A stretch of 64,000 nucleotides of DNA from assembly GCA_045578445.1 (NCBI GenBank), contig JAZNKG010000040.1, positions 3,922 to 67,921 on the forward strand, written 5' to 3'. Position numbers and translations under genes: made by a program. Source of the DNA: Alphaproteobacteria bacterium (GTDB lineage: Bacteria; Pseudomonadota; Alphaproteobacteria; RF32; CAG-239). This document shows, one piece after another, positions 7,680 through 64,000 of the stretch (within the stretch, counting starts at the first letter, position 1; every line of letters begins with the position of its first letter). The notes beneath the pieces are model-generated. The model saw nothing but the letters and a program-made list of their open reading frames with translations. It had not been told where the DNA came from and did no database searches.

Positions 7680-7685
7680 TCTAAA

Positions 7686-17509: not shown

Positions 17510-17516
17510 ATGTTAT

Positions 17517-17543: not shown

Positions 17544-17568
17544 ATTAAAATTTTATGTCGCTTTTTGC

Positions 17569-17597
17569 TTGCATAGGTCATTTTTTTGTGTTACAAT
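17569..17597 (+). promoter_or_regulatory. Putative sigma70 promoter of the three-gene orphan operon
   Basis: TTGCAT-N17-TACAAT with an extended TG. Confidence 0.55.
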
Positions 17598-17637
17598 ATG
17601 TATGTAATAAGGGAATTTTTATGGCAGGAGATATGTC

Positions 17638-19032: not shown

Positions 19033-19049
19033 TCTCCTAGGAGGTTGAT

Positions 19050-46295: not shown

Positions 46296-46413
46296 CGTAA
46301 AACTTTCAAAAAACAAAAAATAAAGGGTTGTTTGTTTATTTATTTTATTATATAGCATTTTGTAAGGCATTTGTCTGTTTATAGCAAACTAAAAATTGAA
46401 AGAGTGAACAAGC

Positions 46414-47070: not shown

Positions 47071-47152
47071 GAAAAAAATTATAGCTATGTTATAAATTTG
47101 ATGTTACACAAATTTGTGAATATTAGTTTTATTTTCGTGAAAGAGGTATATT

Positions 47153-47434
47153 GTGACTAGATCTGAATTAATTGAAAATATTGCAAAAAAGAATCCTAAT
47201 CTTTTGATTAGTGAAATTGAAAAAATTGTTACAGTTATTTTGACAAGCATGACAAATGCTTTAGCAAAAGGTGATCGTGTTGAGTTCCGTGGTTTTGGCG
47301 TGTTCTCTATTCATAAGCGTTCTCCTAGAGTTGCTCAAAATCCTAGAACAGGCGATAAAGTAAAAATTGGTAATCGCAATATTGTTCACTTTAAAGTAGG
47401 CAAGGAATTGCACGAGAAATTAAACGAGAATTAA
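47153..47434 (+). CDS. ihfB: Integration host factor beta subunit
   Basis: MTRSELI, GDRVE.RGFG.FS, NPRTG, FK.GKEL; followed by a LapA-family gene as is usual. Confidence 0.88.
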   Translation: MTRSELIENIAKKNPNLLISEIEKIVTVILTSMTNALAKGDRVEFRGFGVFSIHKRSPRVAQNPRTGDKVKIGNRNIVHFKVGKELHEKLNEN

Positions 47435-47455
47435 TGTAATTTTAAGGAGACGGAT

Positions 47456-47845
47456 ATGTGGCTTTTGAAAGTTTTGGTTTCGCTTCCATTGTTAGTTTTT
47501 TTGGTTTTATTTTTAATCCAAAATAATGAATTAGTGGATTTATGGCCTATTCCGGATTTAAAAATTGCAGTTGGTGCAGTTTACTTTGTGTTGTTGTGCA
47601 TCGGATATTTGTTTGGACGTTTTGACGCTTGGAGAGCTTATTCTCCAATGCGTGCAAAACTTAAAAAGCAAAAGAAAGAAAATAAAGTTTTGTTTAAAGA
47701 ACATGAAAAACTTAATCAACAACATGAAAAATTGAATCAACAGTTTACTTCGTTGCAAGAAGCTGAAAGAAAAGATAGAACAAATGGTTTCTCACTAAAT
47801 AAAAAAATAAAAGGTTGGTTTTCTAAGCCATCTATTGAAGAGTAA
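47456..47845 (+). CDS. LapA (DUF1049)-family membrane protein
   Basis: LFLIQN...V.LWP, second TM, coiled coil; ihfB context. Confidence 0.65.
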   Translation: MWLLKVLVSLPLLVFLVLFLIQNNELVDLWPIPDLKIAVGAVYFVLLCIGYLFGRFDAWRAYSPMRAKLKKQKKENKVLFKEHEKLNQQHEKLNQQFTSLQEAERKDRTNGFSLNKKIKGWFSKPSIEE

Positions 47846-47866
47846 TAAATAAGCGAGGTACTAAAA

Positions 47867-48724
47867 ATGAATTGGCTTACCGATATTGTTAGACCTAAGA
47901 TAAAAAAGACAACTCCTAAAGAAATTGCTGATGATTTGTGGGTAAAATGTCCTGAATGTGGTCAGATGCTTTTTTCTAAGGAGTTGAAACAATCTTTGTA
48001 TGTATGTACAAAGTGTGGTCATCATTTGAGATTATATGTTGATAAGCGATTAAAACAGTTGTTTGATAATGGCATTTATAGAGAAATGACATTACCTAGC
48101 GTAAAAGAAGACCCATTAAAGTTTAAAGATACACAGCGCTATGTTGATAGACTTCGTGTTTATCGCAAAAAAACAGGTAACAACGATGCATTAAAAGTTG
48201 GTACAGGTAAAGTTGCGGGAATCGATACTGTTGTAGCAGCTATGGATTTTTCTTTTATGGGTGGTTCAATGGGTACTGCAGTTGGTGAAGGTATTGTTGC
48301 CGCAGCTCAGTATGCATATGATAACAATTGTCCTTTGATTATTGCTAGTGCTTCTGGTGGAGCTAGAATGCAAGAAGGTATGTTATCTTTAATGCAAATG
48401 GCTCGTACAACTGCTGCTATTAATAGATTAAAAGAAAAGGGATTACCTTATATTTCTATCTTTACAGATCCTACTACTGGTGGTGTTTCTGCTTCTTTTG
48501 CAATGATAGGAGATATTCATATTGCAGAACGAGGGGCGATGATTGGTTTTGCTGGCAAACGAGTTATTGAGCAGACTATTCGTGAAAAATTACCAGAGGG
48601 TTTCCAAACAGCTGAATATCTAAAAGAGCATGGTATGGTTGATATTGTTGTTGAACGTAAAGACCTTAAGGAAACTGTTGATAGAGTTTTAAGCTTGTTG
48701 ATGGCAAATTTTAAAGTTGCTTAA
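47867..48724 (+). CDS. accD: Acetyl-CoA carboxylase carboxyltransferase beta subunit
   Basis: W.KCPEC..C.KC.HH zinc finger, FMGGSMG, SGGARMQEG, PTTGGVSASFA. Confidence 0.97.
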   Translation: MNWLTDIVRPKIKKTTPKEIADDLWVKCPECGQMLFSKELKQSLYVCTKCGHHLRLYVDKRLKQLFDNGIYREMTLPSVKEDPLKFKDTQRYVDRLRVYRKKTGNNDALKVGTGKVAGIDTVVAAMDFSFMGGSMGTAVGEGIVAAAQYAYDNNCPLIIASASGGARMQEGMLSLMQMARTTAAINRLKEKGLPYISIFTDPTTGGVSASFAMIGDIHIAERGAMIGFAGKRVIEQTIREKLPEGFQTAEYLKEHGMVDIVVERKDLKETVDRVLSLLMANFKVA

Positions 48725-48744
48725 TATAAGCTTATTGAGGGGGG

Positions 48745-48770
48745 AACGGAGCTTTATGCTCCGTTTTTTT
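48745..48770 (+). terminator. Intrinsic terminator after accD
   Basis: AACGGAGC-TTTAT-GCTCCGTT followed by a T tract. Confidence 0.8.
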
Positions 48771-48905
48771 ATGCAATTATCACAAATTTATCTTATTGAA
48801 TATATTGAATATTTTAAAATAATTCATATTTTTTGAAAAAAGTACTTGAATAATTAAAATAAATATACATACTAGTAGGTATGATAATAATTTTAGGAGG
48901 CAAAT

Positions 48906-49277
48906 ATGAAAAAACTTATTTATACTTTAATTGTAATGTTATCTTTTAGTAGTGTGGCAAATGCCGAATCGATTGTTGTTATTGATTCTAATGGTCGCGT
49001 AACAAAACAAATTTTTACAACACCAACTACTTATACGACGACAACAACTGCAACATCTTCTCCGACTGTTACAGTTGTACGCGAATCGCCTGTAATAAAT
49101 AATAGCTACTACTATGACAGAGATACTACAATGTCTGCTTGGGCGGCAGGGGTTACAACCGCAGTTATAGGCGGATTGATTTTTGATGGTTTTCATCATC
49201 ATAAACACAAACATCATCGTCCTCGTCCTCATCATGGCGGACGTCCTCATGGTGGCAGACCAGGGCATAGGAGATAG
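48906..49277 (+). CDS. Exported protein with Thr-rich linker and His/Arg/Pro/Gly-rich tail
   Basis: Signal peptide ending in ANA; AGGAGG RBS. Confidence 0.75.
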   Translation: MKKLIYTLIVMLSFSSVANAESIVVIDSNGRVTKQIFTTPTTYTTTTTATSSPTVTVVRESPVINNSYYYDRDTTMSAWAAGVTTAVIGGLIFDGFHHHKHKHHRPRPHHGGRPHGGRPGHRR

Positions 49278-49279
49278 TC

Positions 49280-49645
49280 TTGTTTAGGTTTTTCTATTTA
49301 TATTTAATGTTAGCGGTTATACTGGTTTCTACACCAGTAGCCGCTAATAGCTATGTTGATATGATTACAGCAAAACCTGTCGGGTATGACAGCTATAGTG
49401 AAAGCGAAGATAGAAGTATTATAATCATAAGAGATAATGAGCATGCACAACCTTATAGTAATTCATATGATAATGCAAAATATCATGCTTGGTTAAAATC
49501 TCAGTCTTGCTGTAATAATAACAATTTATATCTTAATTCAGAAATACAGAATGTCTTATACTTTGTCAGCGGAGCTTTTGTGCTACGTTTTCTCTATGAT
49601 GTTTTAGGGCCTCACCATACAAATCATTTGATAGATAAATTGTAA
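49280..49645 (+). CDS. Hypothetical exported or membrane protein
   Basis: TTG start with AGGAG RBS, signal peptide, C-terminal hydrophobic helix. Confidence 0.55.
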   Translation: MFRFFYLYLMLAVILVSTPVAANSYVDMITAKPVGYDSYSESEDRSIIIIRDNEHAQPYSNSYDNAKYHAWLKSQSCCNNNNLYLNSEIQNVLYFVSGAFVLRFLYDVLGPHHTNHLIDKL

Positions 49646-49669
49646 TTTTTGTGTAAATTCATTAGAGCG

Positions 49670-49700
49670 CTTGACTTAATGAGTTTTAATTCCTAAATCT
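49670..49700 (+). promoter_or_regulatory. Possible RpoH (sigma32)-type promoter of grpE
   Basis: CTTG-N18-CCTAAAT resembles the alphaproteobacterial RpoH consensus. Confidence 0.4.
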
Positions 49701-49731
49701 ATCATAGTTAGTTTTTTTAATAGAGGTTGTT

Positions 49732-50289
49732 ATGAACAAAGAAGATAATAAAGTTGAAGATGAAATTGTTGAAGAACAAGAAGTGGTAGAAAATGCTGAT
49801 GAAACAACAGAAGAAGTTGTTGAAGAAGTAACTGCAGAAGATGAAACTTCTAAACTTCAAAATGATTATAATAAGCTAAAAGATGATTATATCCGCCTTT
49901 ATGCAGAAATGGATAATATGAAAAAACGTTCTCAGCTTGAAACAGAAAAGACAATTAAATTTGCTATTTCTTCATTCGCAAAAGAGCTTTTGGGTGTGGC
50001 TGATAATTTAGAACGCGCAATTACTGCTATGGAGAATAATAAAGAATCTTGCGAAGACCTCTTAAAAGGTGTTGAACTTACTCAAAATGAATTAACTAAA
50101 GTTTTTGAAAAATTCGGTATTAAGCGCTTTAATCATATGGGGCAAAAGTTTGACCCTAATTTTGAACGTGTAGTTCAAGAAATTGAAGATAAGAAAAAAG
50201 AACCTGGAACTATTATCGCAGAACTGCAGGCAGGGTATGTGATACATGACAGAATACTTCGTGAAGCTATGGTTATAGTTGCGCGCTAA
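49732..50289 (+). CDS. grpE: Nucleotide exchange factor GrpE
   Basis: R..AE.DN.KKR, FAKELL.VADNLERA, FDPN, Q.GY....R.LR.AMV.VA. Confidence 0.96.
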   Translation: MNKEDNKVEDEIVEEQEVVENADETTEEVVEEVTAEDETSKLQNDYNKLKDDYIRLYAEMDNMKKRSQLETEKTIKFAISSFAKELLGVADNLERAITAMENNKESCEDLLKGVELTQNELTKVFEKFGIKRFNHMGQKFDPNFERVVQEIEDKKKEPGTIIAELQAGYVIHDRILREAMVIVAR

Positions 50290-50687
50290 AGCACAGTCAA
50301 ATTGCTGAATGGAAGCCCCTCGTCGTCGCGTCATGTACCTTTATGTACACTTGTGCTCCTAGGGGGACATTCAGCAATAGCACTGCACTTTATCGCACAA
50401 CTTCAAGCATAACTAGAGTTATTGTTTTGTAAATTTTGCTTTAAGGCAGGACATCTGAGGCTATAAACATAAAATTTTTCCTATTTAGAGTGTGGTGAGA
50501 GTGAAGTAATTAGCGTATGGAAGTCTGTTCTTTGGGGCTTTGTCTAGCAGGCATCATGATTGTGGTTTTAAAGTCTCATGTACGCTTTTTATGTACACAT
50601 CAACTTTAAAACCACTTCCAGCATACCTACTATCCAAAGCCTTTGCTTGTTTATTTATATGGGGCGTTTGTCTACCGGCATCATGAT
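50266..50687. repeat. Cluster A of GTAC-loop-GTAC palindromic elements
   Basis: Hairpins at 50266-50413 and 50536-50641; 50438-50477 matches 61745-61784 at 38 of 40 nt; partial arm duplicate at 50661-50687. Confidence 0.8.
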
Positions 50688-50819
50688 GATTTATTTATAT
50701 AGGATTGTTTCACAAAATTTACCGCGTGTTTTGATAAAAAAACTTATTTGGGGGAGGGATTCTGCTTTAAATTTAAAATTTTTATGCTATAAACGTGCCA
50801 TATTTAAGGAGTTTATAAT

Positions 50820-51851
50820 ATGTTTGTTGCGGTACATAATGTTTGGCATGATGTTTTGTCACTTAATGGATCTATCGATATGTTTGCTAATAAAAATGAG
50901 CTTAACAATTGGAGATGTATGCAAATTTTAAAAGAGACAAATCATTACACTCATATGAAAAAAATGTTCAAAGAGATTAAAAAAAATTGCTCTGATAAAA
51001 ACGGGACTTTAATTCCTGAGAAAATTCTTTCTTATAAAGAGTTTATTTTATCTTGTGTAGACGAGCGAGAGCAAACTGATGAGGCTATGGCGTATTTGCG
51101 TGAGTTTGCAAAGATTGGCGGTATTGAAAATGAGTTTGAAGAAATAAATAAAAAGCCTAAATTTTATAGTCACTTAGATTGTGTTGGGTGTTACCATATA
51201 GTGAGCAATAGTGTATCTGAGAAAATTAAAAAAGAAGCTTCTAAATTATATTATGATGTAGATGATGTTGATTTGAGTGATTTTGATATGAAGAATTTTG
51301 ACAATGTCAAGATTAGAGAAACCGCTCATACCATCAGATTCCAGCGTGCATATAATTTTCCGGAAGTTTTAGATCTTTCTAGATTTGGGTATGTTTCTAT
51401 GCACGATAGTTATTTAGGTAATATTAAAGAGCTTAAGTTTAGAGATGGTGCTCAGGTTGGTTTTCAAGCCTTTAATACGTATAGAATGAAAAACGTAACG
51501 TCAACGTTACCAAAAAAATTAGATGTTTCTATGTGTAGTTTTGTAAATTTACAATATTGTGATTTGGCTAATGTTGAAGAATTAAAACTCGGAGGTACAG
51601 TGCTCTTAAATCGTGCAACTAATTTACCTGAGGTTTTAGATTTTTCTTGTTCAAAAAGAAAATATGATGAAGTAAGAGGTATTTCTTATTCTTTTGATGT
51701 TATGAAAATTAAACTAAGGAATAAACAGCATCGAGAGAATTTTGATGAAGGTGGATTTGAAAACGATTTTATTTATGAAGAAAATTCTGAACCTGCAAAA
51801 AATCGTAAAATCGCGAATATGTTTAGAAAATTTTTTGATAAAACAATGTAA
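50820..51851 (+). CDS. Orphan protein with degenerate LRR-like solenoid repeats
   Basis: Repeats NFPEVLDLS, TLPKKLDVS, NLPEVLDFS and L.N..ELK; AAGGAG RBS. Confidence 0.65.
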   Translation: MFVAVHNVWHDVLSLNGSIDMFANKNELNNWRCMQILKETNHYTHMKKMFKEIKKNCSDKNGTLIPEKILSYKEFILSCVDEREQTDEAMAYLREFAKIGGIENEFEEINKKPKFYSHLDCVGCYHIVSNSVSEKIKKEASKLYYDVDDVDLSDFDMKNFDNVKIRETAHTIRFQRAYNFPEVLDLSRFGYVSMHDSYLGNIKELKFRDGAQVGFQAFNTYRMKNVTSTLPKKLDVSMCSFVNLQYCDLANVEELKLGGTVLLNRATNLPEVLDFSCSKRKYDEVRGISYSFDVMKIKLRNKQHRENFDEGGFENDFIYEENSEPAKNRKIANMFRKFFDKTM

Positions 51852-51862
51852 ATTTTAGTTGT

Positions 51863-51891
51863 AAAAAGCTCTGAGATGTCAGGGCTTTTTT
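51863..51891 (+). terminator. Intrinsic terminator
   Basis: AAAAGCTCTGA-GATG-TCAGGGCTTTT. Confidence 0.8.
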
Positions 51892-52011
51892 GTTATATCT
51901 GATAAATTTGCTAAATATTTTAATTTAAATATTTTTTTTAAGTATTTTTAAACGTAGATTTTATAAAAATAAAGTTTGAAATTTAAGTTTTAATGAGCTA
52001 ACTTTAGGTTT

Positions 52012-53133
52012 ATGAAAAAATTAGATGTATATATAGCCAAACAGATTATAACTGGTTTTCTTTTGGTTGCTTTGTCGCTGATGTCAATGTTGTGGTTGAC
52101 ACAGTCGCTTCGTTTTGTAGAAATGGTAACGGATAAAGGGTTACCAGTTTATATGTTTGTAGAGATGACTTCTTTGTTGATGCCAAGAATATTTTCTATT
52201 CTTTCTCCTATTGCATTGTTTGTAGCGGTTATGTTTGTTTATAATCGTTTGATTGCAGATAGCGAACTTATTGTTATGAAGTCAGTTGGTATTAGTTCTA
52301 TGTTGATAGCAAGAGCAGCTGTTGTGGTTGGAATTATATTGGCGATATTTAATGTTTTTGTATTAAATGTTGGTATTCCAATGGCAGAAAATAAATTTAG
52401 AGATATAGAGTTTGAAGTTAAAAATAGTTTCTCTAAGGTTATGCTTAAAGAAGGTAGCTTTAATTCTTTTAAAAATAATATGACGGTGTTTATTGATAAG
52501 TTTGTTGATGATAATACTATTCAAGGAATTCTTGTTAGTGATGCGAAAAAGCCTGGAGAAAAAGTGGTTACAGTGGCTGAAAGTGGTAGAATTGAATATA
52601 CAGATGCTGGGCCAAAAATCTTGTTAAAAAATGGAACAAGACAGGTTAAAAATAAAAAAACTGGGCAATTTACTTCGATGACATTTGATGATTATTTGGT
52701 GGACTTTGGTGATTTGTCTGTAGCGAAGAAAAAAGATAAGAGTGTTAGAGAAAGAAGTATTAAAGAGCTATTTAGTGAAGCAAAAAATCCTAAGCTATCT
52801 CCTAAACAAGCAAACTCTTATATTGCTGAAGCGCATAGAAGAATTTTAGCTCCATTTTTTAATTTAGTATTTGCTTTGATTGCATGTACAGGTTTGTTGA
52901 TTGCAAACTTTAATAGAAGAGGGCAAGGTAAAGTTATTACTATTTCTATTTTAGCTATGATTTTTGTTCAGGCTATGGATATGAGTTTTGCTAATATGGC
53001 GCGCAAACATCAATGGATTGTTTTTTTAATGTATTTAAATTGTTTTCTACCTTTGGGAATAACTGGCTGGTTATTGTATAAAACTCCTGTTTTTGGTAAA
53101 AAACGAAATAAGGAGATTAAAAATGAAGCATAA
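52012..53133 (+). CDS. lptF: LPS export ABC permease LptF
   Basis: LD.YI, WLTQSLRF, DSELIVM...G.S, EG.FN, AE.H.R...P; upstream of lptD. Confidence 0.85.
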   Translation: MKKLDVYIAKQIITGFLLVALSLMSMLWLTQSLRFVEMVTDKGLPVYMFVEMTSLLMPRIFSILSPIALFVAVMFVYNRLIADSELIVMKSVGISSMLIARAAVVVGIILAIFNVFVLNVGIPMAENKFRDIEFEVKNSFSKVMLKEGSFNSFKNNMTVFIDKFVDDNTIQGILVSDAKKPGEKVVTVAESGRIEYTDAGPKILLKNGTRQVKNKKTGQFTSMTFDDYLVDFGDLSVAKKKDKSVRERSIKELFSEAKNPKLSPKQANSYIAEAHRRILAPFFNLVFALIACTGLLIANFNRRGQGKVITISILAMIFVQAMDMSFANMARKHQWIVFLMYLNCFLPLGITGWLLYKTPVFGKKRNKEIKNEA

Positions 53134-55423
53134 TTTATTTGCTTTGAGTGTGTTTTTTATATGTGTTTGTCTTGGTGCTAATGCGGCTAATGAGCCAGTT
53201 GCTGGTGCGATGTTGAAGAGTGATACAACCGTTACTCCTAAAGCAGATTTTAATCCGAGTAATTTAACTGATATTGCGCCAACGTTAAGCGGTAAAAGCA
53301 AAGAGGAAAATCCTGAAATATATTTTTCTGCAGATGAACTTGAAACAGATGAAAATGAGAGCTTGATTATAGCTAGTGGTAATGTTGTTGTTACAAGAGG
53401 ACAATTAGAATTAACTAGTGATAAATTATGGTATAACCAAAAGAAAGATATTATTGTTGCTGAAGGTAATGTTGTTTTAGTTGAAGCAGATGGTAGTGTT
53501 TTATATACAGATAAGATTACATTGTCTGAAAAAATGACCAGAGCTGAAGTTAATAAAGTAAAAGTTTTGTTGCGTGACGAATCGCATATTTGGGCAGAAA
53601 AATTTGTTAAAAAGCCAAATGATAATAAACAACTTAAAAAAGCATCTTATACTGCTTGTAATATGTGTCAGGGAAAATCTCCATTGTGGAGAATTGATGC
53701 TAGAAAGGTTAATTATGATGCTAAAGGGCAAAATATAAATTATAACGATGCAGTATTAAGAGTTAAAAATATTCCAGTGTTTTATATGCCATTTTTGAGT
53801 CATCCATCTCCAGAAGTTAAGCGTCGTTCTGGTATTTTAATGACTTCTATGGGTAGCTCTACATATTTAGGTAAATATATTCAGCCAACATATTTTATTG
53901 ATGTATCAGACAATACAGATATTTTGCTTTCTCCTTATTTTACAACAGATGGCGATGTAGTTTTTGGTGGGCAATATAGACAATATTTTTATAATGGTCA
54001 CATCAATGCCCAAGGAACATATCTAAAAGATTCTGGTAATTCAAAAGATGATTCTTATTATAGCAAATTTAAAAGACCAGATAATAGAGGAAATTTATTC
54101 TTAGATGCAAGGTATGAAATAAATGATTATTGGGTATCTAATTTAGATTTTAATTATGTATCTGATGTGTTTTATTTGCGTGATTTAAATTTAGCAGGAG
54201 ATGATGATGCGTGGTTAACTTCAAAGCTTGCTTTTGAGCGTTTTGAAGGACGTAATTATGCAACCATTGAAGGATATTACTATAAGCTTACAAGTTATTA
54301 CTTGAAAGCGCATAATGATAGTGAGTTTAAAAATCGTGCTAATAGTATGCCTACAGTTGCGCCATATATGGAATATGAGCATATTTCTGATTCTAATAAA
54401 TATGGAGCATATTGGAAAACAAATATTAGCTCAGCTTCGGTTTATCATGATAGTGAAGAAGAATCTCAGCGTTTGTCTATGATTAATTCTTGGGAATTGC
54501 CTTATACAAGTGATTATGGTGAGCAGTACAAGTTTGTAGCATCGTTGAAGTCTGATTTATATTATGTAAAAGATTATTTTTATAATTCAGATGATAAATA
54601 TGATGGGACAGTTGGTAGAGTATTTCCGCAATTAGGCATGGAGTGGAGGTTGCCTTTGGTTAAAGCAACAGATACATCTCGTCATATATTGGAGCCAGTA
54701 GTTGTTGCTGTTGTTTCTCCTGAAAATGATAATGATATCGAAAAAATACCAAATGCTGATAGTGCTGATGCAGAATTTGATGATGCAAATATTTTGAGTT
54801 TAGATAGATATGCTGGTTATGATAGAAATGATGATGGTAGTCGTATTAGTTATGGTTTGAATTGGAGCTCATATAATGACTATACTGGTAGAACATCTGC
54901 ATTTATTGCTCAGACATATCAATTAAGCGATAGTTCTTTTATGGATGTTATTAATGATGATGAAAAATTATCAGATTATGTTGGTAGAATATATGCTTCT
55001 CCAAATAAGTATCTTGATTTGAATTATCGTTTTAGACTTGATAAAGATAGCTGGGAATTAAATTATAGTGAATTAGGTGCAAGAATTGGTGCACCAATAT
55101 TTAGTGTTTATACATCATATATTTATTTACAGCCAAATCATAATTCTTACTATACTACAAAAGAACGTAAAGAATTATATTTAACGGTTAAATCTCAGTT
55201 GACAAGAGATTGGTCTGTTGGATTGTATAATCGTATAGATTTGACCGATGACGGTGGTTCTTTGGAACATGGTGGATATTTGACATATGAAGATGAGTGT
55301 TTGAAACTTTCATTTACAGCAGAAAAAGAAAACTATCAATATAATGATCCAAATGTTGATGATGGTTATGAGTTTGGACTTACATTTTATTTCAAAACGC
55401 TTGGCGGTTTTGGTTCAAAGTAG
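53123..55423 (+). CDS. lptD: LPS assembly protein LptD
   Basis: Signal peptide, beta-jellyroll (ADEL..A.GNV), YTAC..C, PVFY.P, RRSG.L, C-terminal barrel with DEC; AAGGAG RBS before 53123. Confidence 0.92.
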   Translation: MKHNLFALSVFFICVCLGANAANEPVAGAMLKSDTTVTPKADFNPSNLTDIAPTLSGKSKEENPEIYFSADELETDENESLIIASGNVVVTRGQLELTSDKLWYNQKKDIIVAEGNVVLVEADGSVLYTDKITLSEKMTRAEVNKVKVLLRDESHIWAEKFVKKPNDNKQLKKASYTACNMCQGKSPLWRIDARKVNYDAKGQNINYNDAVLRVKNIPVFYMPFLSHPSPEVKRRSGILMTSMGSSTYLGKYIQPTYFIDVSDNTDILLSPYFTTDGDVVFGGQYRQYFYNGHINAQGTYLKDSGNSKDDSYYSKFKRPDNRGNLFLDARYEINDYWVSNLDFNYVSDVFYLRDLNLAGDDDAWLTSKLAFERFEGRNYATIEGYYYKLTSYYLKAHNDSEFKNRANSMPTVAPYMEYEHISDSNKYGAYWKTNISSASVYHDSEEESQRLSMINSWELPYTSDYGEQYKFVASLKSDLYYVKDYFYNSDDKYDGTVGRVFPQLGMEWRLPLVKATDTSRHILEPVVVAVVSPENDNDIEKIPNADSADAEFDDANILSLDRYAGYDRNDDGSRISYGLNWSSYNDYTGRTSAFIAQTYQLSDSSFMDVINDDEKLSDYVGRIYASPNKYLDLNYRFRLDKDSWELNYSELGARIGAPIFSVYTSYIYLQPNHNSYYTTKERKELYLTVKSQLTRDWSVGLYNRIDLTDDGGSLEHGGYLTYEDECLKLSFTAEKENYQYNDPNVDDGYEFGLTFYFKTLGGFGSK

Positions 55424-55438
55424 TAAAGGAGACAGTAT

Positions 55439-56548
55439 ATGTTTAAGTTGGGACTTTGTTTGATTTTGAGTCTTGTTGCTTTTGATGTGAGAGCGCAAGA
55501 AATGGATATTTCTGATATTGACAGAGCAGTTAGAAGTTCTGGTTCTAGGTCTATTATGTTTAAGCAAAATGCAGAATTAGCAAAAGAAGAAATGGCAAGA
55601 AGAAGAGCTGCAGAAGAAGAGGCTTTGAGAGCAAAAAAAGAACAAGAAATGAGACAAGCTCAATCTGTTTTTAGAGAGTATAATCTTTTTGGTAAAGGAT
55701 TAAAGATTGTGGCAACCATTAATGGTGAAATGATTTCTAATAAAGATTTGCAAGAAAGAGCAAATTTATTTGCACTAACATCTGGTCTTAATATCAATGA
55801 TAAAAATGCAAATATGATTAAAGAAAAAGTTATGCAGGGTACGATTGATGAAAAAATAAAATTACAAGAAGCAGAAAAAGAAGGTGTTAAAATTAGTGAT
55901 AAAGAAATAAATGAAGCTTATCGTAATTTTGAAAAATCTAATGGTGTACCTAAGGGTAAATTTGATAAAATATTAGAAGAATATAAAGTTAGTAAACCTG
56001 TGTTTTTGAATCAAATTAAAGCCAATCTTTTATGGAATAAAATGGTGGCAAGAAAATATGGGCAAAATATTGGTGTATCAGAAAAAGAAGTAAAAGATGA
56101 GTTTGAACGTATTAAAAAAGATATGGATACGCCAAAGTATATGGTGTCTGAAATTGTTATTAAAAAGAAAGATGGCGAGCATATAAATGAGTTGGTTGAG
56201 ATTTTACAAGAAGACCCACGTTTTGAATTATATGCAGTACAATTTTCTCAAAGTGCTAGTGCTCCTTCTGGTGGTAAATTAGGCTGGGTTTCTCCTGGTC
56301 AATTAGCACAGCCTTTAGATTCGGCTATTAGAAAATTAAAAGAAGGTCAAGTATCTAAAGCTATACCTTATCGTGCAGATTATTATATTTTTAGAATGGA
56401 TAAAATTTATAACCCAAAACAAAATAAGCAAGAACTTCCTAGTGAAGATGAAGTTAGAAAGTTTATTCAAAATAGAAAAACAGATGCTCAAGCTAATAAA
56501 TATATAAGAGATTTGCGTAATCGTGCGGTGGTCGAAAAGAGGTTTTAA
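55439..56548 (+). CDS. surA: SurA-like periplasmic chaperone/PPIase
   Basis: IVA.INGE.IS..DL..R, IDE.IK.QEA, FSQS.SA..GG.LGWV, Y.RDLR.RA. Confidence 0.88.
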   Translation: MFKLGLCLILSLVAFDVRAQEMDISDIDRAVRSSGSRSIMFKQNAELAKEEMARRRAAEEEALRAKKEQEMRQAQSVFREYNLFGKGLKIVATINGEMISNKDLQERANLFALTSGLNINDKNANMIKEKVMQGTIDEKIKLQEAEKEGVKISDKEINEAYRNFEKSNGVPKGKFDKILEEYKVSKPVFLNQIKANLLWNKMVARKYGQNIGVSEKEVKDEFERIKKDMDTPKYMVSEIVIKKKDGEHINELVEILQEDPRFELYAVQFSQSASAPSGGKLGWVSPGQLAQPLDSAIRKLKEGQVSKAIPYRADYYIFRMDKIYNPKQNKQELPSEDEVRKFIQNRKTDAQANKYIRDLRNRAVVEKRF

Positions 56549-56560
56549 TAGAGGATAAAT

Positions 56561-57391
56561 ATGGTATTAAGCACTAAAGAGTTTGTTGAAAAATATGGAC
56601 TGATGGCAAAAAAGACATTAGGGCAAAACTTTTTGCTTGATGCTAATATTACCGATAAGATTATGCGTTTATCACTAAAAGAACAGAATATTGTTGATGC
56701 AAGTGGTGAAAAATATATTGAAATTGGACCTGGTCCTGGTGGTTTAACTCAAGCTGTTTTGAGGCAAAATCCTAGTAAACTTACAGTAATAGAAATGGAT
56801 GAAAGATGCTTGAATATTTTAGAAGAAATAAGAGCTTTTTATCCGCAACTTGATATTGTTAGTGGTGATGCCTTAAAATTTGATTGGGATAAGTATATTG
56901 AGAGTGAAGGAAAAAGCCATATTGTTAGCAATTTACCATATAATATTTCTGTGGTGTTATTAACAAATTGGTTGGTGCAAATTGATAAATTTAAAAGCTT
57001 GACTTTAATGTTTCAAAAAGAAGTTGGCGATAGAATTTTAGCTGTTCCTGGTACTAAAGATTATGGTAGAATTTCTGTTATTTCACAATTACAATGTGAG
57101 GTAATAAAATTGTTTGATTTACCGCCTACATGTTTTGTTCCTGCGCCAAAGATTTGGTCTTCTGTTTTATTGTTTAAGCCAAAAGCAGAAGCTTATAGCA
57201 AAGAGGTTTTAGATAAGGTTGAGATGTTGACAGGTTTAAGTTTTGGGCAACGTCGTAAAATGATAAGACAAAGCTTGAAGAGTGTTAAAGGTATATTTGA
57301 AATTTTTGAAGAACTAAACATTAATCCAGAACTTAGGGCTGAGAATCTGACACCAGAGCAATATTTGGATATAGCTAAAAGGTTAATTTAG
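56561..57391 (+). CDS. rsmA: 16S rRNA dimethyladenosine transferase
   Basis: K.LGQNFL, EIGPGPG.LT, NLPYNI, MFQKEV, QRRKM. Confidence 0.97.
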   Translation: MVLSTKEFVEKYGLMAKKTLGQNFLLDANITDKIMRLSLKEQNIVDASGEKYIEIGPGPGGLTQAVLRQNPSKLTVIEMDERCLNILEEIRAFYPQLDIVSGDALKFDWDKYIESEGKSHIVSNLPYNISVVLLTNWLVQIDKFKSLTLMFQKEVGDRILAVPGTKDYGRISVISQLQCEVIKLFDLPPTCFVPAPKIWSSVLLFKPKAEAYSKEVLDKVEMLTGLSFGQRRKMIRQSLKSVKGIFEIFEELNINPELRAENLTPEQYLDIAKRLI

Positions 57392-57467
57392 TTTTAGTTG
57401 AGTTTAAAAAGTAAAATTAAAACATATCTTGTCTTCTGTTTAATAATAAATTTTATAGGAGATAGAT

Positions 57468-58049
57468 ATGACAGAAGGTGTAAGATTTCCAACATTAGCA
57501 TTTATAACAGGTGGTACAGGACAAGCAAAAGATGGTATTCCACCACAACCATTTGAAACTTTTTGCTATGATTCAGCTTTGCTTGAAGCAAAAATTGAAA
57601 ACTTTAATATTGTTCCATATACATCGGTTTTACCAAAAGAGCTATTGGGTAATATTGTGCCAGTAGATAAGGTGGTTAATCAGTTTAAACATGGTGCTGT
57701 TTTAGAAGTTATTATGGCGGCAAATGGTGCAAGTCGTGATGAACACAAAGCTATTGCAACAGGTCTTGGAATTTGTTGGGGTAAAGATAAAAATGGTGAG
57801 CTAATTGGTGGCTGGGCGGCTGAATATGTTGAATATTTCGATACTCAGATTGATGATGAAATTGCAAAAGGTCATGCAGAGATGTGGCTTAATAAATCTC
57901 TAAATCATGAATTAGAAATCAGAGGTGTTGAAAAGCATAGTGATTTTCAGATGTTTCATAATTATTTGAATATTGAAGAACAATTTGGATATTGTTTGAC
58001 TTGCTTAGGTTTTTTGAATTTTGACCATGCTCCAGTTGTTAAATTATAA
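57468..58049 (+). CDS. aaxB: Pyruvoyl-dependent arginine decarboxylase, Chlamydia AaxB type
   Basis: [36 protein letters not shown] with Thr52-Ser53 autocleavage site; [19 protein letters not shown]. Confidence 0.92.
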
Positions 58050-58069
58050 TTATTCATAGAGGAAACGAT

Positions 58070-59548
58070 ATGGTAAAAGATGTTATTAAAAACAATCAAA
58101 AGGAACAAAGTTCTGCGCAAAATGAAGGTAATTTAGGAGTATTAGCTCTAGCAGGTGTTGTTATAAGTTCTATGATTGGTGGAGGTATATATAGCCTTCC
58201 TCAGAATATGGCGGCAGGAGCATCTGTTGGCGCGGTTATTCTAGCTTGGATAATTACTGGAATTGGAGTTTATTTTATTGCTAATACCTTTCGTATTTTG
58301 TCTGTTGTTAAACCAGACTTAACGGCTGGTATTTATATGTATAGTCGTGAGGGTTTCGGTCCGTATGTCGGGTTTACAATCGGATGGTCGTATTGGCTCT
58401 GTCAGATATGCGGAAATGTTGGTTATGCTGTAATTACAATGGATGCATTAAATTACTTTTTTCCGCCATATTTTGTGGGAGGAAATAATCTTTATTCTAT
58501 AATTGGTGGTTCAATTTTAATCTGGTTTTTTAATGCATTGGTTTTAAGAGGCATAAGGCAGGCAACGATTATAAACTTAATCGGTACAGTAGCTAAAATT
58601 GCTCCTTTGTTGTTCTTTATTGTAATCACAATGATATTCTTTAATGCTGATAAATTCTCTTTTGATTTTTGGGGAGAAAATGAACCAAAACTAGGTGGTT
58701 TAACAAAGCAAATAGAGGGTACAATGTTAGTTACATTGTGGGCTTTTATTGGTATTGAAGGTGCGGTTGTTATGTCAAAGCATGCAAAAAATCCAAAAGC
58801 TGTAGGTAAAGCAACATTAATAGGTTTTGCAGGTTGTCTTTTGATTTATGTTTTATTGTCTGTTTTGCCATATGGTTTGATGAATCAAGAACAATTATCT
58901 AAATTACCTAATCCATCTACGGCAGCAGTATTAGAAGCAGTTATTGGTAAATGGGGGGCTTATATTATGAATATAGGTTTGCTTATTTCGGTTTTAACTA
59001 GTTGGCTTGCTTGGACAATGGTTACTGCGCAAATTCCACAAGCGGCGGCATCTAATGGAACTTTTCCTAAGGAGTTCAGCAAAGAAAATGCAAAATCAGC
59101 ACCGTCTGTTTCTCTTTATGTAACAAGTTCTTTGATGCAGTTGTTTATGTTGTTAGTATATTTTTCTAATAATGCGTGGAATACTATGCTTAGCATTACA
59201 AGTGTGATGGTGTTGCCGGCATATTTTGCAAGTGCAATGTATTTGTGGAAATTATGTGAAGACCACGAATATCCAACCAATTTTTATATTAGACGTTCGG
59301 TTGCTCTAATATCTTCGGTATTAGGTGCTATATATGCTTTATGGTTAATATATGCAGCAGGACTTAATTACCTTTTAATGGCTGTTATTTTTATGGCATT
59401 AGGAATTCCTGTGTTTGTATGGGCTAGAAAGCAAAATACTCCTAACGAATCGGTATTTACCACAGGAGAAAGATTTGGAGCGGGAATTCTTGTGGTTTGC
59501 GCACTATTTGCCTTGTATACAATGATATCAGGAGTGATTAGTGTATAA
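58070..59548 (+). CDS. aaxC: Arginine/agmatine antiporter (APC/ArcD family), Chlamydia AaxC type
   Basis: [39 protein letters not shown]; about 12 TM segments; follows aaxB. Confidence 0.88.
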
Positions 59549-59557
59549 TTTTAGATA

Positions 59558-59589
59558 TAAAAAAAGCACCAGTTTTTCTGGTGCTTTTT
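59558..59589. terminator. Bidirectional terminator
   Basis: AAAAAGCACCAG-TTTTT-CTGGTGCTTTTT. Confidence 0.85.
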
Positions 59590-59593
59590 AATC

Positions 59594-59842
59594 TTATACG
59601 TTTAGAGCTTTACGATATGTTTCTAACAAAAATTCTTGCTCATCACGATCAGCTTGATTCATCTTTCTTAATTTGATGATTGTCTTCATAATTTTTACAT
59701 CAAATCCTACGCCTTTTGCTTCAGCATAAATATCTCTGATATCAGAAGAAATTCCTTTCTTTTCTTCTTCTAGGCGTTCAATACGTTCAATTAAAGAGTT
59801 TAATCTTGTACTATCAATTCCACCAACTTCATTTTCAGACAT
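59594..59842 (-). CDS. gapR: Nucleoid-associated protein GapR (DUF2312)
   Basis: L.S.IERIERLEEEK..I..DI...YAEAKG.GFDVK......LRK...DR.EQE..L..Y..AL. Confidence 0.92.
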   Translation of the reverse strand: MSENEVGGIDSTRLNSLIERIERLEEEKKGISSDIRDIYAEAKGVGFDVKIMKTIIKLRKMNQADRDEQEFLLETYRKALNV

Positions 59843-60012
59843 TTTATATCTCCCATATATTGTTTTTTAGAATCTACGGTTTGGTACTTTAACAAATATA
59901 ATTTTTTTTGACAAGAAATAAATGTGTGGGAAAAAAATAATAACTTATTAAGTATTTTTGTTGTACATGTTATATGAGAAAAAGTTTTTTTTAAATTTAT
60001 GGAGAAGTTAAT

Positions 60013-61434
60013 ATGCCAATTAATACGCATACAAAAATATTAGCAACATTAGGCCCTGCATCAAATAGCGAAAGTAAAATTAGCGAGTTAATAGATGCAG
60101 GTGTTGATGGTTTTAGATTGAACTTTAGCCATGGCACACATGATGAACATGAGAAGATGTTTAAGAACATCAGAAAGGTAGCTAAAAAGAAAAATGCTCA
60201 TATTGCGATTGTGGCAGATTTACAAGGTCCAAAGTTGAGAATCGGTAAATTCAAAGAAGAAAAAGTAGAATTAAAAGTTGGGCAAGACTTTGTTCTTGAT
60301 ATGAAAAAAGATTTAGGTGATAACTCTCGCGTTACCCTTCCTCATAAAGAAATTTTTGAAGCATTAAAAATTGGAGATAAGCTTTTAGTAAACGACGGTA
60401 ATATTGTGCTTAAAGTTGTTAAAAATGGTAAGAATTATGCCGATACTGTTGTTGAAGTAGGGGGTGTTGTTTCTAGTAACAAAGGTGTAAATTTGCCTAA
60501 TTCATCACTAAATATTTCTGCACTGACAAAGAAAGATTTAGATGATTTAAATTTTGCTCTTAAACTAGGTATAGATTGTGTTTGTTTATCCTTTGTGCAA
60601 AAACTTGCAGACGTAAAAGAAGCTCGTAAAATCATCGGCGATAAAGCATGGATTATTTCTAAGCTAGAAAAACCTCAAGCCATTGATGATGTAGATAATA
60701 TTATTAAGGCTTCTGATATGATAATGGTTGCTCGCGGTGATTTGGGTGTTGAATGTCCAGTTGAGACAGTGCCAGTTTTACAAAAGCATATTGTAGAAAG
60801 ATGTCGTCAACATGGTAAGCCTGTTATTGTAGCAACGCAAATGCTAGAATCGATGATTTCTTCTCCAATGCCAACTCGTGCAGAAGTGTCAGACGTAGCT
60901 AATGCAGTATATGACGGTGTTGATGTGGTTATGCTTTCTGCAGAAACTGCTGCAGGTAAATATCCTGTTGAGACAGTTAAAAAAATGCATGCCGTAATTG
61001 AACAAGTAGAAAATGGTCCAATGTATGTAGAAAACGTAAATCGTTTTTGTGCTGGTTCTCAATATAACAATGTTACTTGCGCTATTACTTATGCAGCAGG
61101 TCGTGTTGTTCGTACCTTAGATAAAGTAGGATGTTTAACTACATTTTCTGTTAGTGGCAAAACAACTCTTTCAATGGCTCAAGAGCGTCCATTATTGCCA
61201 ATTCTTGCCATTACTCACAATCTAGAAACAGCTCGCAGATTGAATCTTGTTTGGGGTGTGCGCACCTTTATTGATAAAAAAGTGTTTGGCAACTTTGATA
61301 ATATGGAGACAGTTGCTCGTGGTTTTGCTCGTATATCTGGTGCGGCAAGTGAAGGCGAGTATATTGTAGTTACCGCAGGCTATCCGTTCGGAAAGGTGGG
61401 GTCTACTAATGTGTTGCACATTATTAAAGTCTAA
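60013..61434 (+). CDS. pyk: Pyruvate kinase
   Basis: TKI.ATLGPAS, RLNFSHG, DLQGPK.R, K.EK, MVARGDLGVE, ATQMLESM, MLSAETA.G.YP. Confidence 0.97.
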   Translation: MPINTHTKILATLGPASNSESKISELIDAGVDGFRLNFSHGTHDEHEKMFKNIRKVAKKKNAHIAIVADLQGPKLRIGKFKEEKVELKVGQDFVLDMKKDLGDNSRVTLPHKEIFEALKIGDKLLVNDGNIVLKVVKNGKNYADTVVEVGGVVSSNKGVNLPNSSLNISALTKKDLDDLNFALKLGIDCVCLSFVQKLADVKEARKIIGDKAWIISKLEKPQAIDDVDNIIKASDMIMVARGDLGVECPVETVPVLQKHIVERCRQHGKPVIVATQMLESMISSPMPTRAEVSDVANAVYDGVDVVMLSAETAAGKYPVETVKKMHAVIEQVENGPMYVENVNRFCAGSQYNNVTCAITYAAGRVVRTLDKVGCLTTFSVSGKTTLSMAQERPLLPILAITHNLETARRLNLVWGVRTFIDKKVFGNFDNMETVARGFARISGAASEGEYIVVTAGYPFGKVGSTNVLHIIKV

Positions 61435-61967: not shown

Positions 61968-64000
61968 ATGGAAAAAGATAAAGTTATTCAGGTTACTGAA
62001 GAACAAGAAAAACAATATATTGATGCTTTGGTTAGCAAAGTTACGGCAGCTCAGAAAAAGTTTGCTGAATATAGCCAAGAACAAGTAGATTATATCTTCC
62101 GTCGTGTAGCTTTGAAATTAAGCTCACTTCGTATTCCTTTGGCTCAAATGGCTGTTGAAGAAACAGGTATGGGTATTGTTGAAGATAAAGTAATCAAAAA
62201 TCATTTCGCATCTGAATATATTTTTAATAAATTTAAAAATGTAAAAACTTGCGGAATTTTGGAAGAAGATAAAGCTAATGGCTTGATTAAAATTGCAGAG
62301 CCAATTGGTGTTATTGCTGGTGTTATCCCAACAACTAACCCAACATCAACTACAATTTTTAAATCTTTAATTGCTCTAAAAACACGTAATGCAATTATCT
62401 TTTCACCACACCCAAGAGCTAAAAAATGTACTGTTGAAACAGCTCGCATTATCTTGGAAGAAGCTGTAAAAGCTGGTGCTCCTGAAGATATTATTGCTTG
62501 GATTGATGAACCATCAATTTTAAGAACACAATTTTTGATGCAAAGTGCAGATCTTACTTTGGCAACAGGTGGTCCTGGTATGGTTAAATCAGCATATAGT
62601 TCCGGTAAGCCTGCATTAGGTGTTGGTGCTGGTAATACTCCAGCATTAATTGATGAAACTGCTGATATTGAAATGGCTGTTTCTTCAATCTTGATGTCTA
62701 AAACATTTGATAATGGTATGATTTGTGCATCTGAACAATCTGTTATTGCTGTTAAAGATGTATATGATACAGTTAAGGCAGAATTTGTTAAACGTGGTGC
62801 ATGTTTCTTAACATCTAAAGAAAAAGAAAAATTAGGCAAAGTGATTATGATAGATGGTCGCTTAAATGCTGCTATCGTTGGTCAACCTGCTTATAAAATT
62901 GCTGCAATGGCAGATGTAAAAGTTCCTGAAGATACAAAAGCTCTTATTGCTGAATGTTCTAAAGTTGGTGTTGATGAGCCTTTCTCTGCAGAGAAATTAT
63001 CTCCAGTTTTAGCAATGTATAAAGCTGATGATTTTGAAAAAGGTGCAAATCTTGCTAAAGATTTAGTTTCTTTTGGTGGTAGAGGACACACATCTGTTCT
63101 TTATACAAATCCTCAAAATGATGATAGAATTAAATATTATGGTCATTTGATGATTACGGGTCGTGTGATGATTAACTGTCCATCTTCACAAGGTGCGATT
63201 GGTGATATTTATAACTTTAGATTGGAACCATCTTTAACTCTTGGTTGTGGTTCTTGGGGTGGAAACTCAGTAAGTGAGAATGTAGGAGTAAAACATCTTA
63301 TGAATATTAAAAATGTTGCTTGTAGAAAAGAAAATATGTTGTGGTTTAAAGTTCCACCAAAAATCTATTTCAAACCTGGTTGTTTAAGTTTAGCTCTAAA
63401 AGAACTTAAAGGTAAAAAACGTGCATTTATTGTAACAGATAAACCTTTGTTTGATTTAGGCTATACTAAAAAAGTTACAGATGTATTAGATGAAATTGGT
63501 GTTCAACATAAGATTTTCTCTGATGTTCATCCAGACCCAGACTTAACTACTGTTAATATGGCTTTAGGTACACTTCGTTCTTTTGAACCAGATGTAATTA
63601 TTGCTCTTGGTGGTGGTTCTCCAATCGATGCTGGTAAAATTATGTGGTTAATGTATGAACATCCAGAATTGAAGTTTGAAGATTTGGCTATGCGCTTTAT
63701 GGATATTCGTAAACGTGTATTTGAATTCCCAAATCTTGGCGATAAAGCAATGATGGTTGCTATTCCAACAACTTCTGGTACAGGTTCTGAAGTTACACCA
63801 TTCTCTATTATTACAGATGATGCTGAAGGTGTTAAATATGCGGTAGCTGACTATGTATTTACTCCAAATATGGCAATTGTTGATGCTGATTTAGTTCAAT
63901 CTATGCCTAAAGGTTTATGTGCAGCTTCTGGTATTGACGTTTTAACTCACGCAATTGAATCTTATGTATCTTCAATGGCTACAGAATATACTCGTTCTTT
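61968..64000 (+). CDS. adhE: Bifunctional acetaldehyde-CoA/alcohol dehydrogenase; 3' end lies outside the window (absent from the ORF track)
   Basis: Manual translation from ATG 61968 (GGAG RBS) gives GIVEDKVIKNHFASE, PTTNPTST, ATGGPGMV, FDNGMICASEQ, LGCGSWGGNS, GGGSPIDAGK, PTTSGTGSEVTPF. Confidence 0.96.
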   Translation, partial: MEKDKVIQVTEEQEKQYIDALVSKVTAAQKKFAEYSQEQVDYIFRRVALKLSSLRIPLAQMAVEETGMGIVEDKVIKNHFASEYIFNKFKNVKTCGILEEDKANGLIKIAEPIGVIAGVIPTTNPTSTTIFKSLIALKTRNAIIFSPHPRAKKCTVETARIILEEAVKAGAPEDIIAWIDEPSILRTQFLMQSADLTLATGGPGMVKSAYSSGKPALGVGAGNTPALIDETADIEMAVSSILMSKTFDNGMICASEQSVIAVKDVYDTVKAEFVKRGACFLTSKEKEKLGKVIMIDGRLNAAIVGQPAYKIAAMADVKVPEDTKALIAECSKVGVDEPFSAEKLSPVLAMYKADDFEKGANLAKDLVSFGGRGHTSVLYTNPQNDDRIKYYGHLMITGRVMINCPSSQGAIGDIYNFRLEPSLTLGCGSWGGNSVSENVGVKHLMNIKNVACRKENMLWFKVPPKIYFKPGCLSLALKELKGKKRAFIVTDKPLFDLGYTKKVTDVLDEIGVQHKIFSDVHPDPDLTTVNMALGTLRSFEPDVIIALGGGSPIDAGKIMWLMYEHPELKFEDLAMRFMDIRKRVFEFPNLGDKAMMVAIPTTSGTGSEVTPFSIITDDAEGVKYAVADYVFTPNMAIVDADLVQSMPKGLCAASGIDVLTHAIESYVSSMATEYTRS

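Follow-up and report, generated by a model that had tools for sequence, protein, structure and literature searches.

Pyruvoyl-dependent arginine decarboxylases of archaea are biosynthetic and are not known to be paired with an antiporter. The aaxABC genes, which encode a porin (AaxA), a decarboxylase (AaxB) and an arginine:agmatine antiporter (AaxC), are well described in Chlamydiaceae, and most work has regarded the aax system as a trait of chlamydiae. The accessible portion of PMC2720952 reports that chlamydial AaxB self-cleaves at Ser53, that a Gly115Arg exchange blocks the cleavage, and that the corresponding strand of the Methanocaldococcus jannaschii enzyme bears Glu109, an aid to cleavage. 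In the same portion, Chlamydiaceae are described as having gained aaxABC by transfer after their split from Parachlamydiaceae, and aaxC frameshifts are described in some C. trachomatis serovars. Three-gene decarboxylation clusters of aaxB, an antiporter gene and hdcA have been described in gut Bacteroides (PMC8465708, accessible part). Here we analyzed a stretch of 64,000 nucleotides from a small-genome gut alphaproteobacterium (assembly GCA_045578445.1, contig JAZNKG010000040.1, positions 3,922 to 67,921; hereafter the window), which contains an aaxB-aaxC gene pair near its end.

We are fairly confident that aaxB and aaxC at this locus form the core of a system for arginine:agmatine exchange like the one characterized in Chlamydia pneumoniae. 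The gene pair is not a new system or mechanism, and public annotations of metagenome-assembled genomes (MAGs) already name the window proteins "pyruvoyl-dependent arginine decarboxylase" and "amino acid permease". No published report of the three-gene set in Alphaproteobacteria was found in a literature search that excluded subscription journals and supplements. The complete set is near-universal in this animal-gut alphaproteobacterial family and is found in four related small-genome families. Therefore, the reading of a private link between one alphaproteobacterium and Chlamydia gives way to that of a three-component system that occurs throughout the family and is also present in Chlamydiaceae and some further lineages.

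The aaxB-aaxC pair and its predicted function

The features on which this assignment is based are as follows.

57468..58049, + strand: aaxB, pyruvoyl-dependent arginine decarboxylase proenzyme of 193 amino acids (PF01862)
57621..57626, + strand: codons of Thr52-Ser53, the predicted self-cleavage site at which Ser53 would become the pyruvoyl group (conserved in the alignment)
58070..59548, + strand: aaxC, basic amino acid antiporter of the APC superfamily, 492 amino acids, predicted arginine:agmatine exchanger (PF13520, TIGR00905)

The AaxB protein matched PF01862 (PvlArgDC) with an E-value of 1.4e-26 (93.7 bits, cutoff 22.7) and scored 34–38 bits with the NCBIfam PvlArgDC equivalog models, the cutoffs of which are 107–207. 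Thr52 and Ser53 have the same numbering in four chlamydial AaxB sequences. In an alignment of 17 sequences, including relatives of only 27–38% identity, Ser53 and Glu119 were invariant and Gly115 was nearly invariant, and we read Glu119 as the likely counterpart of M. jannaschii Glu109. The single AaxB sequence matched no solved structure at an E-value of 0.001, and a profile of the AaxB family matched the solved PvlArgDC structures 1n2m and 2qqd (E-value approximately 1e-7). In the protein atlas, the names attached to AaxB, as well as to the porin described below, were generic only, and a search among representative sequences at the 50% identity level yielded few full-length relatives, none of them named. 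One of the three nearest AaxB-like atlas clusters (206 amino acids, PF01862 in 100% of its members) was labelled 89% viruses, mostly Nucleocytoviricota; a related decarboxylase may be encoded by giant viruses.

The identity to proteins from Chlamydiaceae was 71–80% for AaxB (20 loci) and 59–64% for AaxC (19 loci), with 62% over 483 amino acids in a pairwise alignment of AaxC. Blocks of 15 and 21 residues in AaxB were letter-for-letter the same in one chlamydial protein (locus L139), and one 21-residue block of AaxC was identical and one 19-residue block nearly identical in chlamydial AaxC. The first-pass annotation, made from the sequence alone, had described a pyruvoyl decarboxylase with Thr52-Ser53 at the chlamydial numbering, followed by an antiporter and a terminator, and long blocks near-identical to the chlamydial proteins; both descriptions agree with the reading frames, the family matches and the alignments. 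The sequence comparisons support the assignment of the window genes as true orthologs of chlamydial aaxB and aaxC.

AaxC is present as a single copy without a paralog in the genome. It matched PF13520 with an E-value of 2.8e-59 and passed the NCBIfam model TIGR00905 for basic amino acid/polyamine antiporters (578 bits, cutoff 409). The protein remained below the cutoff of the AdiC equivalog NF007929 (165 bits, cutoff 574), while AdiC proteins are its closest solved structures (E-value 1e-33); AaxC may work like AdiC yet falls outside the AdiC family. Its scores with the arginine-ornithine equivalog of ArcD (TIGR03810, 505 bits) and the model for histidine-histamine antiporters (460 bits) would suit another substrate pair (arginine:ornithine, histidine:histamine or lysine:cadaverine) with a matching specificity of AaxB, as would the Bacteroides clusters of aaxB, antiporter and hdcA genes in the accessible part of PMC8465708. 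However, both scores lie under the curated cutoffs of 591 and 725, respectively, the genome has no arginine deiminase, and no second decarboxylase gene stands beside aaxBC. Moreover, AaxC shares 62% identity with a chlamydial family for whose members arginine:agmatine antiport is reported in the available text of PMC2720952. We therefore consider another substrate pair to have only a slim chance of being correct.

The genome (1.7 Mb, approximately 32% GC) is 100% complete by marker genes. It contained no match to PF04371 (agmatine deiminase), PF00491 (agmatinase/arginase), PF02784 (ornithine/arginine/diaminopimelate decarboxylase) or PF02274 (arginine deiminase), while named control genomes matched each of these families. 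Since no agmatine-using enzyme is present, the agmatine that AaxB is predicted to form can only leave the cell, and since arginine deiminase is absent, the antiporter cannot act in an arginine deiminase pathway. Together, these two absences favor an exchange cycle of the C. pneumoniae type, parallel to AdiA/AdiC of Escherichia coli.

In the proposed cycle, the AaxB proenzyme would cut itself between Thr52 and Ser53, and Ser53 would be converted to the pyruvoyl cofactor. The mature enzyme would then form agmatine from L-arginine by decarboxylation, taking up one cytoplasmic proton in each turnover, and AaxC would bring arginine in and swap it for the agmatine produced. An AaxA-like porin of the OprB family, encoded on another contig, probably passes both solutes through the outer membrane. 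Agmatine would be the exported end product, and the cycle as a whole would use up protons (acid tolerance) and probably add to the membrane potential. Acid tolerance, in acidic gut compartments or in the presence of fermentation acids, accompanied by some energy gain from electrogenic exchange, is a plausible physiological role. The stretch was present in 20 run rows from 10 studies labelled as metagenomes of animal gut or faeces, including those of sheep and goat, although one of these may be the source sample. Because the genome has no enzyme to use agmatine, we predict that gut bacteria of this family convert dietary or host arginine to secreted agmatine, a bioactive amine.

A biosynthetic AaxB, supplying agmatine for putrescine or spermidine next to a permease acting as a general amino acid importer, would agree with the biosynthetic role of the archaeal pyruvoyl arginine decarboxylases and with the finding of distant PvlArgDC proteins in 42 of 301 Bacteroidales genomes (28–37% identity). 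The genome yielded no further arginine/ornithine decarboxylase family (no PF02784 match), which points in the same direction. However, the genome encodes neither an agmatinase nor an agmatine deiminase to process agmatine, the gene is paired with the antiporter gene in all 37 alphaproteobacterial genomes checked, and the window AaxB falls in the AaxB clade and not with the distant PvlArgDC type. A biosynthetic role is therefore highly improbable. As a separate observation, the lack of a PF02784 match means that the usual diaminopimelate decarboxylase LysA is seemingly missing, and the organism may be dependent on external lysine.

Distribution of the pair and of an AaxA-like porin

Among the 151 sampled genomes of the order, all but one of which are at least 94% complete, 137 had AaxB, with 80–93% identity to the window AaxB as query. 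These 137 include 136 of the 149 genomes of the same family, distributed among 17 of 20 genera. The aaxC gene directly follows aaxB in all 20 family genomes from 14 other genera. Within the genus of the window genome, 11 of 11 loci have aaxC after aaxB, and rsmA lies upstream in all 11; the flanks differ in other genera, and rsmA or gapR-pyk are still neighbors in two of them. The idea that the pair is peculiar to one alphaproteobacterium is thus contradicted, since the type also occurs in four further alphaproteobacterial families: a class sample of 301 genomes contained it in nine, including the window genome, from five families (f1, f20, f25, f40 and f108) with genomes of 1.1–2.0 Mb. In all six AaxB genomes from the four other families, aaxC adjoins aaxB, and their AaxB proteins are 73–79% identical to that of the window. 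Overall, aaxB and aaxC were adjacent in 37/37 alphaproteobacterial loci and in 20/20 chlamydial loci, of which L150 has a broken aaxC. Two genomes of the same genus show signs of decay. In G117, the aaxB match (C19:7647-8225) contains one in-frame TAG. In G015, AaxB gave no match, and all that is left of AaxA is a stretch of 44 residues that contains a TGA codon (C47:4105-4236).

A search of the window genome with the Pfam OprB model identified one gene, on the minus strand of a contig other than that of aaxBC (G000:C29:43326-44468, with aaxBC on C40). The 381-amino-acid product matched PF04966 with 46.3 bits (cutoff 22.9) and was 39% identical to chlamydial AaxA over 320 amino acids (E-value 6e-72). 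With the generic OprB model, the porin and chlamydial AaxA scored only 46–77 bits, versus 127–332 bits for ordinary alphaproteobacterial OprB porins. They belong to a common AaxA subfamily clade (98%) apart from 17 generic alphaproteobacterial OprB porins. The aaxA porin gene had been reported as absent, which is correct for the locus and not for the genome.

The porin largely accompanies AaxB. In the class sample, close copies (47–60% identity, in addition to the window genome's own) occurred in seven of nine AaxB-positive genomes and in none of the 292 AaxB-negative genomes, which yielded a single distant match of 21%; the two AaxB-positive genomes without the porin are 87% complete. In the order sample, 129 genomes had both genes, eight had AaxB only, six had the porin only (one of them being the 44-residue remnant with a stop codon) and eight had neither. 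This cross-tabulation was made by hand, and because relatives are not independent, no p-value is given. The eight AaxB-only and six porin-only genomes indicate that the porin is not strictly tied to the aaxBC pair.

The chlamydial arrangement, in which aaxA lies directly upstream on the same strand, does not occur in the window genome, and in another genome of the same genus the porin gene is 337 kb from aaxBC. In at least 13 genomes of five other genera, the distance is approximately 10–12 kb, and in genus g6 the porin gene is adjacent and divergent to aaxB in 12 of 12 AaxB-positive genomes. Among the other alphaproteobacterial families, the gene is adjacent and divergent to aaxBC in G471 (f20). 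In G491 (f40), it shares the strand of aaxBC and lies 1.7 kb upstream; in G719 (f108), it is likewise on that strand and directly precedes the pair, at a distance of 580 bp. The last arrangement indicates that the chlamydial gene order exists outside Chlamydiaceae. Some family genomes encode a second, divergent AaxA-like porin (loci L204–L207 in G088, G101, G125 and G085; also G099 and G118), with 28–35% identity to the AaxA-like porin by BLASTP and 32–35% in the genome search. In the concatenated tree described below, they fall among the other sequences of the family, and they look like a family-specific duplication. In genome G036, a tandem pair of AaxA-like genes (64% and 47%) is present.

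The chlamydial sample was reached by a 16S primer scan of the genome collection and centered on a MAG titled "uncultured Chlamydiaceae bacterium". An AaxB homolog with 70–80% identity to the window AaxB was present in 25 of the 29 scored genomes of the family sample (one further genome was unscored), and a protein cluster bearing the name Chlamydia felis has the same sequence as one of these proteins. All 20 chlamydial loci have the order aaxA-aaxB-aaxC, with a porin of approximately 386–481 amino acids, a decarboxylase of 194–195 amino acids (from the aligned start) and an antiporter of approximately 485–496 amino acids. The aaxC gene of locus L150 (G179, 2101-3403) is broken into three frames of 135, 246 and 109 amino acids, which recalls the C. 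trachomatis frameshifts described in the accessible portion of PMC2720952. In a phylum sample around Chlamydiaceae, 27 of 300 genomes had a match; 25 were Chlamydiaceae-family genomes and two were distant (33–35%). This restriction agrees with the acquisition specific to Chlamydiaceae that is described in the accessible text of PMC2720952.

In Bacteroidales, a more distant AaxB type was present in two of the 301 genomes (61–64% identity in the genome search and 56–59% by BLASTP), apart from the 42 genomes with remote PvlArgDC proteins mentioned above. Public protein clusters contained an AaxB 80% identical to that of the window labelled as an Elusimicrobiaceae bacterium (MAG) and one of 76% identity labelled Cetobacterium, including the non-MAG Cetobacterium sp. 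2A. With a chlamydial AaxB as query, Chlamydia proteins (87–91%) were followed by a plateau at 73–80% with the labels Alphaproteobacteria bacterium, "Acetobacter sp.", Cetobacterium and "Victivallaceae", and the best matches after Chlamydia were mostly "Alphaproteobacteria bacterium" MAG proteins (75–79%). The searches with the window AaxB and with the chlamydial AaxB counted approximately 650–680 homologs. The "Victivallaceae" protein (P0437) was rejected as independent evidence from another phylum, being identical to the AaxB of G184 (L136) in the Chlamydiaceae family sample; either its MAG label or the Chlamydiaceae family placement is off. G184 is a 1.1-Mb genome with aaxA-aaxB-aaxC, and together with G156 it branches at the base of the chlamydial clade.

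Several points weigh against the assignment of the locus to an arginine:agmatine exchange system with an AaxA-like porin. The sequencing runs listed for the stretch included no RNA run, and a consensus scan found no promoter directly upstream of aaxB (10 promoter-like sites versus 13.9 expected, which is signal-free either way). AaxC scores nearly as well with the ArcD and histidine-histamine models (values above), and the substrate of the antiporter is not fixed by its sequence alone. The porin gene is unlinked to aaxBC in the window genome and its genus, and the genomes of the order sample with only AaxB or only the porin add to this. Acid tolerance, energy gain and other roles are indistinguishable by sequence. 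Finally, the taxon labels of the copies that are neither alphaproteobacterial nor chlamydial are those of their submitters.

Descent and genomic neighborhood

The AaxB tree comprised 92 rows and 194 columns. It contained a core clade that includes chlamydial AaxB, supported with a value of 97 in the Shimodaira–Hasegawa-like approximate likelihood ratio test (SH-aLRT), and the Bacteroidales copies (98) were its sister group; seven relatives of 39–56% identity also lay outside the core clade. Within the core clade, the Chlamydiaceae grouped together (96), while the backbone was unresolved. The AaxC tree, with 58 rows, recovered the window's family (SH-aLRT 99), its genus (98) and Chlamydiaceae (99) each as a clade, and the joining branches were unresolved. 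The family and genus clades in the AaxC tree, together with the host-like base composition of the region, indicate that aaxBC is an old pair with mostly vertical inheritance within the family. More broadly, aaxA, aaxB and aaxC are old, mostly vertically inherited components of the window's alphaproteobacterial family.

The AaxA tree comprised 51 rows, namely 18 alphaproteobacterial AaxA-like porins, 12 of the 20 chlamydial AaxA sequences (thinned), four extra porins of the window's family and 17 generic OprB porins. Of these generic porins, 16 came from one set of loci, after removal of one locus with a stop codon, one truncated locus and four AaxA-like loci, and one (L202) came from the class sample. 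The extra family porins were rejected as an outgroup because the concatenated tree places them among the family's own sequences, and the generic OprB porins were used instead. Chlamydiaceae (100) lay inside a group with 100% support that also held the alphaproteobacterial families other than the window's own, as well as three divergent copies of the window's family; Chlamydiaceae were sister to family f20 (SH-aLRT 86). When all alphaproteobacterial AaxA sequences were forced into one clade, the tree was 23.5 log-likelihood units worse, with a p-value of 0.107 in the approximately unbiased (AU) test. The concatenated tree of AaxA, AaxB and AaxC (29 rows, 1091 columns, composite outgroups) joined Chlamydiaceae with f20 (92) and kept the window's family together (99) on a backbone polytomy; the AU test of alphaproteobacterial monophyly gave a p-value of 0.316. 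Neither AU test rejects alphaproteobacterial monophyly, and the constraint groups were named after the trees had been viewed.

None of the AaxB, AaxC, AaxA or concatenated trees paired the window's family with Chlamydiaceae as sisters. This bears on the old horizontal transfer proposed in the first-pass annotation, which would specifically link the window lineage with Chlamydiaceae and make them sister groups for aaxB and aaxC. Such a link would account for the high identity to the chlamydial proteins and for the predominance of alphaproteobacterial MAG proteins behind Chlamydia in the search with chlamydial AaxB. It would also suit the acquisition after the split from Parachlamydiaceae (PMC2720952, accessible portion), consistent with the 25 positive genomes of the phylum sample all belonging to the Chlamydiaceae family sample. 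However, the AaxB and AaxC backbones are polytomies, the best AaxA and concatenated trees place Chlamydiaceae with another family, f20, and equally close AaxB proteins occur in the four other alphaproteobacterial families and under the Elusimicrobiaceae and Cetobacterium labels. A specific link is therefore unlikely. Of the proposal, the orthology and the shared AaxB clade stand, and the sister grouping does not; the prospect that equally close homologs in many phyla would speak against it has been realized in part, by the Elusimicrobiaceae- and Cetobacterium-labelled proteins.

What emerges is a tight orthologous group consisting of the window's family, four other alphaproteobacterial families and Chlamydiaceae, which for AaxB at least also extends to genomes labelled Cetobacterium and Elusimicrobiaceae. 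Transfers between phyla have occurred. As to their direction, the trees tilt towards Alphaproteobacteria as the source of the chlamydial cassette, without establishing it. As a tentative scenario, which we hold to be possible rather than probable, the aax system, including the AaxA branch of OprB, may have arisen and diversified in small-genome gut Alphaproteobacteria, and the ancestor of Chlamydiaceae may have taken up the whole cassette from such a bacterium, with f20 as the nearest sampled relative and G719 as a genome that has kept the gene order. Alternatively, f20 may have received the genes from a chlamydial relative. The AaxA and AaxC proteins of the Elusimicrobiaceae- or Cetobacterium-labelled genomes lie outside the tree sampling, which limits the donor-pool reading. 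If true, an alphaproteobacterial origin would name the donor pool of the chlamydial acquisition, the source of which is not named in the accessible portion of PMC2720952. The expectation that the locus would inform the origin of chlamydial aax survives in a changed form, as a narrowed candidate donor pool among Alphaproteobacteria. In addition, these bacteria provide a non-pathogen gene source for studying the aax system.

The order of genes around the locus is lptD, surA, rsmA and the two co-directional open reading frames aaxB and aaxC, followed by convergent gapR, pyk and adhE. The flanking features are as follows.

56561..57391, + strand: rsmA/ksgA, 16S rRNA dimethyladenosine transferase (PF00398, E-value 5.4e-47), the same-strand upstream neighbor, 76 nt from aaxB
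57457..57462, + strand: Shine-Dalgarno-like AGGAGA, 5 nt upstream of the aaxB ATG (from the sequence)
58059..58063, + strand: Shine-Dalgarno-like GAGGA, 6 nt upstream of the aaxC ATG (from the sequence)
59561..59589, no strand assigned: palindromic hairpin with a 12-bp stem and a 5-nt loop, bordered by runs of A and T, between the convergent aaxC and gapR
59594..59842, − strand: gapR, alphaproteobacterial nucleoid-associated protein (PF10073, E-value 4e-33; NF010247, 108.8 bits, cutoff 94)

The intergenic gap between aaxB and aaxC is 20 nt. The hairpin at 59561-59589 looks like a bidirectional intrinsic terminator for aaxC and gapR; a terminator scan of 57300-60100 found three sites versus 1.5 ± 1.2 in shuffles, and the hairpin is a consensus match only. 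The gapR gene is the convergent downstream neighbor, outside the aax system, and marks the host lineage as alphaproteobacterial, in line with the host named in the first-pass annotation. The GC content of the window is low (approximately 0.27–0.39 per kb) and that of the aax region is 0.33–0.34; the base composition of aaxBC is host-like, as had also been noted. The GC skew is approximately +0.3 over most of the window (1-20000 and 46000-59000) and approximately zero or slightly negative near 20–28 kb and 40–44 kb, probably owing to gene orientation or strand bias. An open-ended gene at 61968-63998, named from its translation as an adhE-type bifunctional aldehyde/alcohol dehydrogenase, fits a fermentative, anaerobic lifestyle of this alphaproteobacterium.

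Comparison with described systems

The archaeal enzyme PdaD (M. jannaschii 1n2m and 2qqd) shares with the window AaxB the Pfam family, the pyruvoyl-forming serine and the glutamate. The relationship is distant, however, and only the family profile, not the single AaxB sequence, reaches the solved structures.

The AdiA/AdiC system (AR3) of E. coli and Salmonella follows the same logic, in which cytoplasmic arginine decarboxylation is combined with arginine:agmatine antiport and consumes protons. In contrast to the large, pyridoxal phosphate-dependent AdiA, the small pyruvoyl enzyme AaxB is an unrelated protein, and AaxC fails the AdiC model and sits in the ArcD-like TIGR00905 branch.

The Bacteroides clusters, as described in the accessible part of PMC8465708, indicate that aaxB-type genes beside antiporter genes had already been annotated in gut bacteria outside Chlamydia. 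They contain hdcA, whereas the window locus has no histidine decarboxylase gene. The Bacteroidales copies are also more distant, with 56–64% identity for AaxB and 43% for the neighboring antiporter, and constitute the sister group of the core AaxB clade.

The closest described system is aaxABC of Chlamydiaceae. AaxB is of nearly the same size (193 versus 195 amino acids) and shares Thr52-Ser53, Gly115 and Glu119; the aaxB-aaxC order and spacing are the same, and the genome encodes a porin of the same OprB subfamily with 39% identity to AaxA. In contrast to the chlamydial cluster, aaxA is located outside the cluster here, on another contig in the window genome and 337 kb away in the genome of the same genus, and the AaxA-like protein is shorter (381 versus about 440–470 amino acids). 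The host is a gut alphaproteobacterium, the sampled relatives of which all have genomes of 1.3–2.0 Mb. While the system has decayed in some C. trachomatis strains according to the literature, it is a near-universal trait of this alphaproteobacterial family.

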